Shown here one piece after another: positions 2,228 through 17,299 of a DNA stretch of 64,000 nt. A program made the position numbers and the translations under genes. The DNA is from Octopus vulgaris (lineage: Eukaryota), in NCBI GenBank assembly GCA_951406725.2, contig OX597827.1, positions 25,916,001 through 25,980,000 on the forward strand, written 5' to 3'. The notes below the pieces were generated by a model that was given only the letters and a program-made list of their open reading frames with translations, was not told where the DNA came from and made no database searches. Each line of letters starts with the position of its first letter. Position 1 is the first letter of the stretch.

Positions 2228-2852
2228 ATGTAAAATATATATGTGTATATATGAGTATGTATTTATATATGTGTGTGTCTATCTATATCTATATATATAT
2301 ACACACATATTTATGTATGTATATATACGTACGTTTATGTAACAGTATGTATGTGTGTTTTTTTCATTCGGTTATTATTTCAAATCTTCCTATATATATA
2401 TATATAAAGAACTGTTTATGTATCTATATTAACTTATTTATTTATTAATTCGTTCTGTTATGCTAAAACATACATCACAAACTTAGGAACTTCGATAACA
2501 AAATAGAAAAGATATTGAATATTAGAAATGTTTTCATATCATCATTGTTCCGTTTACAAATGGAATTCTCTGCATACAAGTTGGGTTTTTGCAATCTGTT
2601 GCTGTAACAGTTACTGAAACACGTGCACCAAATAGTATAGGTGAAAATTTCAATATATAACCTGGTTAGTAAATGTGTAGATTCCGAAGCAATCGACTGT
2701 ACTCGTTTTCCTCGACGCCAGAAGAGCTTGTCATTAAAACGTAACGTACAAATAGCTTTTGTTATTCTTCAGTTTTCTGCCTTACGTACGCAAATATAGA
2801 CTTGGTGTGTTAAAATTTACTCGATGTTTTGATAGGTATTGTCAGATAATGT

Positions 2853-3088
2853 TTATTATTTCTTTATTGCCCACAATGGGCTAAACATAGACGGGACCAA
2901 CAAGGACAGACAAACGGATTAAGTCGATTACATAGATCCCAGTGCTTCACTGGTACCTAATTTATCGACCCCGAAAGGATGAAAGGCAAAGTCGACCTCG
3001 GCGGAATTTGAACTTAGAATGTAAAGACAGACGAAACACCGTTATGCATTTCGTCCGACGTGGTAAGGTTTCTGCCAGCTCCCCACCT
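2853..3088 (-). mobile_element. tRNA-derived SINE family B (Nin-domain-like core CCTTTCATCCTTTCGGGGTCGATAAA)
   Basis: Reverse complement matches the copy at 13253-13660 from head to tail. Confidence 0.85.
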
Positions 3089-13252: not shown

Positions 13253-13660
13253 AAGGGCGGCGATCGGGCAGAAACGTTAGCACGCCGGGCGAGATGCTTA
13301 GCGGTATTTCGTTCAGAGTTCAAATTCAGCCGAGGTCGACTTTGCCTTTCATCCTTTCGGGGTCGATTAAATAAGTACCAGTTACACACTGTGGTCGATA
13401 TAATCAACTTAATCCGTTTGTCTGTCCTTGTTTGTCCTCTCTTTGTTTAGCCCCTTGTGGGTAGTAAAGAAACAGGTATTTCGTCTGCCGTTACGTTCTG
13501 AGTTCAAATTCCGCTGAGGTCGACTTTTTCTTTCATCCTTTAGGGGTCGATAAATTAGTACTAATTACGCACTGGGGTCGATGTAATAGACTTAATCCCC
13601 TTGTCTGTCCTTGTTTGTCCCTTCTGTGTTTAACCCCCTGTGGGCAAAAAATAAATAAAT
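13253..13660 (+). mobile_element. SINE family B with a tandem, 5'-truncated second copy
   Basis: 13302-13472 is repeated at 13475-13655. Confidence 0.9.
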
Positions 13661-13894: not shown

Positions 13895-14080
13895 AGTTGT
13901 ACTTGTATTTCAAAGGGTCAGCCTTGTCACTCTCTGTGTCACGCTGATTATCCCCGAGAACTACGTTAAGGGTACACGTGTCTGTGGAATGCTCAGCCAT
14001 TTGCACGTTAATTTCACGAGCAAGCTGTTCCGTTGATCGTATCAGCTGGGACCCTCGTCGTCGTAACCGGCGGAGTCTTT
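13895..14080 (+). mobile_element. 3' part of SINE family D (also 49958-50205)
   Basis: CAGCCTTGTCAC.CT.TGTGTCACGCTGA...ACCCTCGTCGTCGTAACCG is shared between the copies. Confidence 0.75.
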
Positions 14081-14279
14081 TTTTTTTAATACCAGGAGAA
14101 ATAATACGAAGCACCTTTTCTGAAGCCATATAAATTCTGTCAGCTGGCTTCGCTTTATAAACTATTTAGAATAATATTCTATTCAGTTCTATATTTAAGA
14201 GATGAAGAATATTGTACATTATTTACATCGTTTCCATTGTTTACATTTGACGATATTTGTCCTCATCTTGTTTGTTGTT

Positions 14280-14325
14280 AACACAAAGTTTCGGCTGATA
14301 TACTCTCCAGCCTTCATCAGGTGTC
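14280..14325 (-). ncRNA. Minimal type-I hammerhead motif (position 16.2 mutated)
   Basis: GACAC-CTGATGA-A-GGCTG-10nt-CAGCC-GAAA-CT-TT-GTGTT. Confidence 0.78.
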
Positions 14326-14376
14326 TTGGGAAAATTTCGAATCTAGGTTCTCATTCCTTTTTCGATGTTGTTGTTG

Positions 14377-14469
<93 letters not shown>

Positions 14470-14491
14470 CCACCATCACCATCACCATCAC

Positions 14492-14572
<81 letters not shown>

Positions 14573-14696
14573 TATTCAGGTCACTGCCTGGAATCGAGCT
14601 CGGAATCTTGGTGTTAGTAGCCCGCGATCTTAACCACTACACCATAAAATCGAAAGATACCTTAGGAATGAGAACCCGGGTTTGAAATTTCCCCAA

Positions 14697-14742
14697 AACA
14701 TCTGATGAAGGCTGGAGGGTATATCAACCGAAACATTGTGTT
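14697..14742 (+). ncRNA. Minimal type-I hammerhead motif (inverted-arm copy, degenerate)
   Basis: AACAT-CTGATGA-A-GGCTG-10nt-CAACC-GAAA-CA-TT-GTGTT. Confidence 0.72.
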
Positions 14743-14811
14743 AACAGCAAGGAAGATGAGGACAAATATCCATCAAATGTAAATAATATAATTAAGGAAT
14801 GTACTATTCTA

Positions 14812-16098
14812 TTAGGTTGTCAAGAAAGTTCTTGCGGAATTAAAAATTTTGGTTTTAAATGATGTATTTTCCAATTACCTTTCGGTAATTTACTTTGATT
14901 TTATATATCATTTTAAAGCCCGTTTTTTGCTCTACCTAATCGTGTTACTCTTTTTCTTTTTGAGTAATTAGGTCATTTTTCCGGAACGTTGAATACAACA
15001 AGGACAAAAATCAAATTCGCACAATTTCCTTATTCCAGTTCAAGCTAGGCCGAAAAGCTGCTGAAACAGCTCGCGATATCAACGATGCTTTTGGCCCAGG
15101 AACCACTAATGAACTACAGCACAGTGGTGGTTCAAGAAATTTCGTAGCGGTGACGAGAGTCTTGAAGATGATCAGCGTAGTAGTCGGCCATTGAATGTTG
15201 ATAACGATCAACTAAGAGCTTTAGTCAAAGCCAATCCACGCACAACTGTTCGAGAGCTTGCTTCTGAATTAGACGTAACATATATAACAATTTCCAACCA
15301 CTTGAAAGAGATTGGAAAGACAAAAGTACTTGAGAAATGGGTGCCGTACGAATTGAACGACAACCAGAAAAAAAAACGCCGTTTTGAAGTGTCTCTTCCC
15401 TTCTTTTACGCAACAAGAACGACCCGTTTCTCGACCGGATTGTGACTTGAGATGGAAAGTGGATTCTTTACGACAACTGGTGACGCTCAGCTCAGTAGTT
15501 GGACGCCGACGAAGCTCCACAACACTTCCCAAAGCAAAGGTTGCACCATAAGAAGGCCATGGTGACTGTTTGATGGTCTGCAGCCCATCGCATCCTTTAC
15601 AGCTATTTGGATCCAGGCGAAACCATTACGGCGAAGAAGTACTCCCAGCAAATTGATGAAATGCGTAAGAAACTCCGACACAACAGCCATCATTGGTCAA
15701 TAGAAAAAGACCAATTCTTCTCCACGACAACGCTCGGCCGCACGACGTACAACTGACCCTGCAGAAGTTGAACAAATTGGGCTACAAAACTGTGCCTCAT
15801 CCGCCATGCTCACCAGACCTCTCACCTACCGACGGTCACTTTTTCAAGCATCTCGACAAATTCCTGCGTGCGAAATGCTTCAAAAACCAAGACGATGCCA
15901 AACACGCTTTCAACGACTTCATCACCACCAGAACGCTGGAATTTTACGCTACTGGCATAAATAAACTTGTTTCGTGTTGGAAAAAGTCTGTTGATTCTGA
16001 TGGTGTTTATTTCGATTAATGAAGTTTTGTTTGAGCCGAGATATGAGCATCTGAATTTAAAGGTTACAAAAACCGTAAGAACTTTCTTGACAACCTAA
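14812..16098 (+). mobile_element. Full-length decayed mariner (DD34D, Hsmar1-like) transposon, 1287 bp
   Basis: TIRs TTAGGTTGTCAAGAAAGTTCTT(G/A)CGG at both ends, flanked by TA. Confidence 0.96.
15000..16019 (+). pseudogene. Mariner transposase, frameshifted
   Basis: NPRTTVRELA HTH, WVPYEL, LLHDNARPH, HPPCSPDLSPTD in separate ORF pieces. Confidence 0.94.
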
Positions 16099-17299
16099 TA
16101 TGTATATATACTATAGGGGTTCTGATTTAGACAGGAGGTCAGTGAGTTTGAGGGGTAGTGGGTGCCGATAGTATTGACCCCAGTACTTGATACTTGGCTG
16201 GTACTATATTTTATCAAGTCTGAAAGAATATTAGGTAAAGTTGAGCTGGACGGGATTTTGACCAGGTACTGTTATTTAAATACAGCCTGAATGCCCGGAT
16301 GAAAGTTCTGCACACTAAAATGTCGTATCCAAGGCAATCCGATGTCATTTTGGTTTACATTGTCTTTTAATCTATCTGTATCAATTTCACTTGTTGTGCT
16401 TGTTGAAGCAGAAGTTTAAAAGCTGCAACAGGATTTCATGTTATAAAGTGTAACTTATTTGGGAGTAGAGGCTTAAGGGTAAAGCTTGACTATAATGACT
16501 CTGCCTCGTATAAATCTGGTCGGTCAATTTGCATTCCATGGTTTTCCTGCGCCTTTAAACTGCGACAAACATTAAATCATAACTTTTAAGTGTAGTTTTA
16601 TTACTATGTCATACAACAATAAAATACTATGTAATATAACAATATCGATGTTCACTTCACACGATATATCCTGAGATATTGTTTATTTTATTAAAAAGAT
16701 AAAAGCGTGAAATCCATTTTGTAAATATTTTCATTGCTTTCAGACGCAAAATACATAAAGGGCTTAAGCATTCTGTGAATCACACCCTAATAAATGATGT
16801 CATTTTAAAGAGCATGCAAATAGACGTAGTAACAATTAATGTTCATTAATTTGTAAACAGTTTTCGGTTTAACTAGGTGTTTATAGTAATATACTTGAAT
16901 AAAACTTGTCGATATAACCGTAATCGATGCAAGCAAAACGCTTTGATGTTATGATATTTCGTTGTTAGTATATCTTTAATGTAAGTATGAAATCATAAAT
17001 TTCTTATTATGACGAACGGAATAACCCAGGGATTGTAGATATAAAAGAGGAGAAAAGTTTGATCTTTATTCAATAAAATGAAACATTGAACAGCTTTTAA
17101 AATTCAATCACCAGATATTAATTAATATATGATTCATATAAAATCTACTCAATTTGGATTTAGGAAATTACGGAGATGTACTCGTTAGAGAAATGACAGG
17201 GTATTGAACTCTAAATATGTACTTCGAAGAAAATATCTGTGAGCTACTTCACACACACCCACACACACACACATTGTTATATCTATTATATTTTGTGAC

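Follow-up and report, generated by a model that had tools for sequence, protein, structure and literature searches.

The stretch of DNA considered here (64,000 nucleotides of Octopus vulgaris contig OX597827.1, hereafter the window) carries at 14184-14801 an insertion bounded by target-site duplications of 10-11 nt, the left copy (14172-14182) differing by one mismatch from the right (14802-14811). On the minus strand the insertion opens with a tRNA-derived head (14646-14579, tRNA positions 6-73) that holds an A box at 14644-14634 and a B box at 14599-14590; the latter has one mismatch, and C stands at the invariant T54. An earlier note on this DNA had seen a tRNA-like head at this place, and only its limits needed refining. 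A trinucleotide spacer (14578-14377) follows, whose repeat tract of 196 nt (14572-14377) is (ATG)n as that note described, but this is the window copy's own form and the family spacer is (AAT)n. Next lies the direct tail arm (14367-14184), which is the 3' part of a pseudo-LTR and also the first ~55 codons of the ORF of a Penelope-like element (PLE); it measures ~184 nt and not the ~125 nt previously assigned to it. The ATG of the family corresponds to 14354-14352, and the reading frame is broken in the window copy. The last 34 nt of this arm (14217-14184) are a one-sided PLE "tail" extension. On its other side the head meets, head to head, a 5'-truncated inverted tail arm on the plus strand (14649-14801), which lacks the 34-nt extension and is 88% complementary to the tail over 107 nt. 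Its start had been placed correctly, but it runs to ~14795-14801, beyond the earlier limit of 14783.

Each arm contains a hammerhead motif. That of the direct arm, a minimal type I hammerhead, was rightly located at 14325-14280 on the minus strand, with helix I formed by 14325-14321 and 14284-14280, the core starting at 14320 and a predicted cut between 14285 and 14284; the minimum-energy fold of this copy consists of helices I and II. The second copy occupies 14697-14742 on the plus strand. As the earlier reading had it, the two cores are GAAAC-T-TT and GAAAC-A-TT. The direct copy carries G16.2 to T, and the inverted copy G16.2 to A together with changes in helices I and II. Since both have lost the 15.2-16.2 pair and so depart from the minimal type I form, both are predicted to be inactive, and the statement that the element self-cleaves does not apply to the window copy, a decayed fossil ~6-10% from the family consensus. 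The surroundings have their own history. A mariner-like DNA transposon of ~1.3 kb (14812-16098; 21-nt inverted ends at 14810-14830 and 16080-16100; a decayed transposase-like frame, read by eye) later inserted at a TA on the outer edge of the right target duplication, and pieces of other abundant repeats, recurring in many of the loci fetched, lie at 13500-13640 and 13960-14070.

The insertion belongs to a large family of fixed design. Exact 20-mers match the genome 5,148 times for the head and 7,913 times for the tail, which at ~5% divergence suggests an estimated ~20,000 tail arms, and a 42-nt hammerhead core with GAAACGTT has 1,040 exact matches against none for the reversed control. The window's own head variant has 164 exact matches; it is a 3% point mutant of the family head, and we reject it as a mark of a short-only subfamily. 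A tail follows within 800 nt downstream in 53 of 60 head-selected loci (two pairs of which overlap), and an inverted piece lies upstream in 43 of 60, in keeping with the order that the earlier note had drawn from this single copy. L231 and L232 are nearly identical heads that lack a tail, carry a different 5' flank and form part of a larger repeat common to both. Other repeats often intrude into the (AAT)n spacer with 3' ends that themselves finish in AAT runs (eight loci); these we take to be Dong/R4-type elements, which target such microsatellites.

The way in which the copies are inserted is that of a PLE, as the earlier note had suspected from the inverted partner arm. Among 60 distinct two-armed insertions, a terminal extension of 34-47 nt is present on exactly one arm in 53, on both in one and on neither in six (Fisher P 5e-10), and the same pair of 3' ends, 34 nt from each other, appears in RNA-seq reads. 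Inverted 5'-truncated copies and a one-sided extension of 30-40 bp are described PLE features in the available text of PMC8557442 and PMC2377424; here they occur in 43 of 60 and 53 of 60 cases, respectively. Family insertions carry duplications of 10-13 nt, and 30 of 53 two-armed insertions lie between duplications of 11 nt or more that differ by no more than one mismatch, as compared with 1.7% of shuffled pairs. The family's 3' end lies at two fixed PLE positions and has no terminal repeat, in place of the LINE 3' end with poly(A) or simple repeat of a SINE. Nor are the copies arranged in the tandem hammerhead units of non-LTR retrozymes: they are solo or in inverted pairs, and same-strand repeats of the short unit are rare (e.g. 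L070 and L221). The enzyme would prime at either of two set positions close to the 3' end, and a template jump or a fold-back on reaching the 5' end would give the second arm.

The autonomous element with the same terminal repeat, which the earlier note had envisaged, was found through the upstream extensions of tail-selected loci, 4 of 30 of which have extra upstream sequence encoding a GIY-YIG-type C-terminus. In 27 of 30 loci the GIY-YIG end leads straight into the head; six of these loci are duplicates that share a contig and represent one PLE insertion amplified inside a larger segmental repeat. The ORF start is immediately preceded by the tail in 25 of 30 loci and by both head and tail in 7 of 30. 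A pseudo-LTR is thus present at both ends through partial tandems. One near full-length but broken copy, L159, has in order an inverted arm, the direct-tail end, an ORF of ~770 codons, head, spacer and tail. Its ORF encodes a reverse transcriptase (RT; Pfam RVT_1, E 6e-8) and an endonuclease region that resembles a PF01541-bearing relative (P0066, E 2e-13), while Pfam by itself gave no match to that region; L159 and others have RT and GIY-YIG in a single, now broken, ORF. The Cys-rich, Zn-finger-like linker between RT and endonuclease that separates Neptune/Nematis from Penelope/Poseidon (PMC8557442, in the portion available) is absent from the translations of L159-L176, judged by eye, and we place the parent with Penelope/Poseidon on that ground. 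The closest relatives (P0001-P0022) have 57-69% RT identity. Other PLE families retrieved by a GIY-YIG Pfam search, including one with a 781-aa ORF, were ruled out as the parent because none matched the tail. That 781-aa family (L121-L128) is young, with many intact ORFs and, by eye, the Cys-rich linker (Neptune-like); it has a long tandem-repeat 3' region and no canonical hammerhead close behind the ORF.

The tail is itself coding in this parent. The frame that begins at its ATG crosses the hammerhead and continues into the ORF (uninterrupted in L326 and L305), and it is homologous to the N-terminus of a relative (P0019; 47% over 92 aa, E 2e-18). Because the cassette stands beside both the end and the start of the ORF and the tail frame shares this homology, the element's own pseudo-LTR consists of head, spacer and tail, and the sequence called "tail" is the 5' end of the ORF. 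The earlier picture of a separately assembled SINE that parasitises Penelope is thereby replaced, the head being part of the autonomous element's own repeat. We also considered whether the 34-47-nt extension is a short intron, as it has GT..AG ends and its removal would restore the frame. This is not favoured: no supporting joint is present among the RNA-seq joints listed, no precisely spliced copy is found among 30 loci, and the homology of the unspliced tail frame to a relative counts against it. More generally, there are no splice-type joints in the pseudo-LTR among the joints listed, at an ORF-side RNA-seq depth below ~15.

The hammerhead is clearer in the family than in the window. The family consensus has the core, helices I and II, G10.1-C11.1 and a palindromic 15.2-16.2, that is, all the elements of a minimal type I hammerhead. 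The consensus GAAACGTTGTGTT that had been predicted from the two decayed cores was borne out, with G in the majority at the differing site (74% of 265 arms), and with it the dimer-type helix III. Helix I pairs in 44 of 48 cells over 16 distinct motifs from the family and distant relatives, against a shuffle mean of 23 and maximum of 36, in a test whose search pattern imposed the helix III palindrome. The single subfamily change within the core affects position 7, which is free to vary. A fully intact hammerhead is kept by only 88 of 244 arms, and the best computed co-fold (-29.2) is more stable than a designed active dimer (-22.3). Arm starts provide modest evidence that some templates were cut at the family hammerhead: among the 99 tail-truncated of 320 arms, the 10 nt that follow the predicted cut contain 13 starts and the preceding 30 nt contain 8 (P 4e-4; 12 vs 9, P 2e-3, with one doubtful case moved), in a deletion-prone region and with bins chosen after the data were seen. 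Most arms span the cut site, and their templates were therefore uncut or religated. This would follow if a single short RNA, with its one hammerhead copy, mostly stays uncut, while a minority of templates is probably cut, in tandem transcripts or in trans. The family hammerhead is the motif inherited from PLEs, with its predicted dependence on a dimer. In several PLEs ribozyme and coding sequence may overlap, as residues 18-50 of P0019, the metagenome element L337 and L326:1343-1510 have the hammerhead core in an open frame that reads as a conserved peptide, PD(D/E)G...(P)KR/RRN.

Over 73 nt the head aligns in register from +1 with genomic tRNAs, which supports a tRNA-related head with A and B boxes; the best match is tRNA-Arg(TCG) (z 8.8, 30 sampled), but the sample held few isotypes, and tRNA-Arg is only weakly indicated as the head's origin. 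ARAGORN and Rfam recognised neither a tRNA nor a hammerhead in the window unit, so both labels come from the tests reported here. The head also coincides with an abrupt change in copy number. Exact 20-mers match 245 times in the RT and 850 times at the ORF end, against the 5,148 matches of the head 60 nt further on, a fall, going upstream, of 6-fold over the 60 nt before the head and of 3.5-fold over ~825 nt of ORF; the loss rate across this boundary is ~20 times that within the ORF. Of 60 arms, 43 begin at the tRNA start (~-19 to +8, with palindromic junctions counted), 9 begin within the head and 8 reach further upstream, whereas the truncation rate in the ORF predicts ~5% at that place. These copies have the properties of SINEs in being short, dispersed, high-copy and non-coding, with their start at the head's 5' end. 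No sense T4 run is present in head or tail. Together, the cluster of arm starts at the tRNA start and the lack of T4 fit initiation by Pol III.

SINEs are taught as parasites of LINEs, and short tRNA-type elements normally use LINE enzymes. We propose that most copies of this family were likely made as short Pol III transcripts and copied back by Penelope enzymes rather than LINE enzymes. Pol III would start a few bases before tRNA position +1, and, as the cassette has no T4 terminator, the transcript would run on through spacer and hammerhead; the family's RT and GIY-YIG endonuclease would then copy this short RNA into the genome. Taken jointly, we give a probability of about two in three that the window feature is a two-armed, head-to-head insertion of a Penelope/Poseidon pseudo-LTR containing a tRNA-derived A/B-box cassette and that it likely originated from such a transcript, copied in by the family's RT and GIY-YIG endonuclease. 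RNA-seq (three raw unstranded runs, possibly of a related species) covers the repeat deeply but in both orientations; 66-88% of reads extend into unrelated flanks, the ORF start is covered very thinly, and the rows listed contain neither a pile of starts or ends nor a splice signal. This coverage is host read-through and has no bearing on the Pol III question.

A broader possibility, which we regard as tentative and rather doubtful, is that the cassette replaced the usual Pol II promoter and intron and that the whole coding element is a Pol III unit, processed by two hammerheads, whose pseudo-LTRs shed short transcripts. Transcription would begin in the upstream pseudo-LTR, and SINE-like short RNAs would come from each downstream or solo pseudo-LTR. 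It is suggested by the position of the cassette before the ORF and by a 2.3-kb body without shared T4 runs (the aligned copies, 96.8 kb in total, contain 21 runs, and no site has one in more than 3 of 33 copies). L159 has none where 3.1 are expected (P 0.02), and another PLE family in the genome has 8-9. A further hint is the hammerhead's place in an open frame, where no intron is required; another is the similar A/B segment before the hammerhead of the unrelated PLE L337. Against this, three other copies are singly not significant (P 0.16-0.34), the ORFs of two head-less relatives are just as poor in T4, and T4 runs occur in L337 too. L337, a tandem PLE on a metagenome contig with 42% RT identity, has its A/B-box-like segment at 2820-3030 (z 4.6 vs tRNAs), then an AAT stretch and a hammerhead inside the ORF N-terminal frame. 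It is not sister to the window family and is possibly an independent capture of a Pol III promoter, or possibly chance; an A/B pair occurs in 1 of 23 mapped 3' regions of distant relatives (31-53%), which is about the chance rate for this loose pattern.

Plain 5' truncation, which we consider unlikely, would do without Pol III: the short copies would come from long (Pol II) PLE transcripts on which the RT stops or folds back at a hairpin, and the tRNA-like segment would be a passenger once inserted into the pseudo-LTR. A small hairpin (-5.4 kcal/mol) does sit exactly at the boundary before the head, and many insertions are perfect palindromes centred on it, but many arms start at +1 to +5 and hence without the hairpin, and several have no inverted arm. 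Helix II of the hammerhead is stronger (-8.1 kcal/mol) yet causes no pile-up of 5' ends, as bins 61-90 contain 8 of the 99 tail-truncated arms. The loss rate at the boundary, far above that in the ORF, also argues against simple truncation. In its favour, short and long arms share one consensus and age, and the two arms of an insertion share derived variants at 61 of 5,095 sites, 2.6 times more than random pairs and a value that none of 2,000 shuffles reaches. This excess could reflect common subfamily origin or gene conversion, and 45 of 60 pairs have no non-CpG variant common to both arms, which speaks against truncation; the window's two arms have none in common.

The comparison of short and long arms also bears on the idea of an independent SINE lineage, a tRNA head with a borrowed PLE end that has its own short source genes and parasitises the Penelope machinery. 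Head-bearing arms outnumber ORF-end arms by ~6:1 and RT arms by ~20:1, which favours such a lineage, and any short copy with intact boxes could serve as a source. But the head is inside the autonomous element too, and short and ORF-linked arms are equally divergent (5.7% vs 6.2%, P=0.95, n 37 and 34) with no diagnostic allele between them in this small sample. The differences listed between them all favour the consensus in short arms, and in the head these follow from the way loci were selected. The sole subfamily found, marked by two linked changes, includes the ORF-linked L153 and L156, and the window's head variant is a point mutant rather than a subfamily. Equal age and the lack of a diagnostic allele thus do not support a lineage distinct from the autonomous partner, and we hold it to be quite improbable. 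Chance nesting of an (AAT)n-tailed tRNA SINE beside an unrelated PLE fragment, to which the seven heads without a tail within 800 nt and the other repeats so often held by the spacer might point, is refuted by the order fixed in 53 of 60 loci, by single target-duplication pairs that enclose the head and both tails and by the same head-tail order in autonomous copies, and we give it next to no credence.

Much of what we describe is already known from other systems. With the EN+ Penelope/Poseidon elements of PMC8557442 and PMC2377424, as far as their available text describes them, the octopus element shares the single ORF with RT followed by GIY-YIG, the pseudo-LTR formed by partial tandems, the inverted truncated copy, the one-sided extension and a hammerhead in the pseudo-LTR. 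In D. virilis Penelope, according to the same portions, the extension is 34 bp at the ORF start, and the pseudo-LTR region contains a TATA-less Inr/DPE promoter and a spliceosomal intron; the octopus family differs in its A/B cassette, (AAT)n spacer, absence of T4 and hammerhead in an ORF-continuous frame. The minimal PLE hammerheads of Cervera and de la Pena 2014 (PMC4209133, available in part) have a short helix I, an extra base between 9 and 10.1, G10.1-C11.1 and a palindromic 15.2-16.2 without loop 3, with a predicted need for dimers. The family consensus has every trait listed there, with no essential difference; U at position 17 is found in 4 of 15 relatives as well.

Other systems each share part of the design. 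The octopus OK, OR1 and OR2 repeats are tRNA-derived SINEs, OR1/OR2 being cited as CORE-SINEs (PMC4824008 and PMC4758252, in the portions available). With tRNA SINEs that have a LINE partner, our family shares an A/B-box head, short, dispersed and high-copy units and a 3' part common to the RT source, but here the partner is a PLE that carries the head as well, and the simple repeat sits inside the unit instead of at its end. In the SINE-like Schistosoma Sm-alpha/Sj-alpha repeats a hammerhead lies downstream of an apparent Pol III promoter; the accessible part of PMC6765202 presents them as tandem repeats freed from multimers by the ribozyme and names no partner there, while the octopus copies are scattered as inverted pairs, show the footprint of a PLE and have a parent that could be identified. 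Animal non-LTR retrozymes (PMC7229834, bioRxiv 10.64898/2026.07.22.740005) and Chlamys/MRC1 (PMC8557442) are proposed users of PLE enzymes and, like our short copies, non-coding derivatives that bear hammerheads or form pLTRs. In the text available, what defines a retrozyme is a tandem of units with at least two ribozymes, and no tRNA head is mentioned; "tRNA" has no match in that of the bioRxiv paper and appears in ligase and processing contexts in that of PMC7229834. Cassandra, Helenus and Ajax have a promoter derived from a small-RNA gene in their terminal repeat, and the part of PMC10886601 at hand treats them as non-autonomous LTR elements, as opposed to a PLE pseudo-LTR with an autonomous carrier. 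The PLE traits and hammerhead type are therefore known, and Sm-alpha, retrozymes and Helenus/Ajax each have part of the arrangement. In this literature we found neither a PLE pseudo-LTR described as bearing a tRNA head nor a tRNA SINE described as mobilised by a PLE, and the available text of the octopus and cephalopod repeat papers PMC13282606 and PMC8967140 gives class totals only. As OK, OR1 and OR2 were compared by description, the family may already have an entry under one of those names or in Repbase, Dfam or SINEBase, and its sequence may also sit in the Zenodo library of PMC13282606 or in the bioRxiv supplements.

A tRNA-headed short element with a Penelope footprint and a parent would extend the SINE-LINE relation to a second class of retroelements. 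The capture of a Pol III promoter inside a pseudo-LTR would offer a simple route to a SINE-like element, and the ~270-nt unit would represent a natural minimal substrate for questions about PLE transposition, such as recognition by the enzyme, the origin of the inverted arm and of the one-sided extension, and the role of the dimer hammerhead. Finally, some of the repeats annotated as SINEs in octopus-type genomes may be the ends of PLEs.
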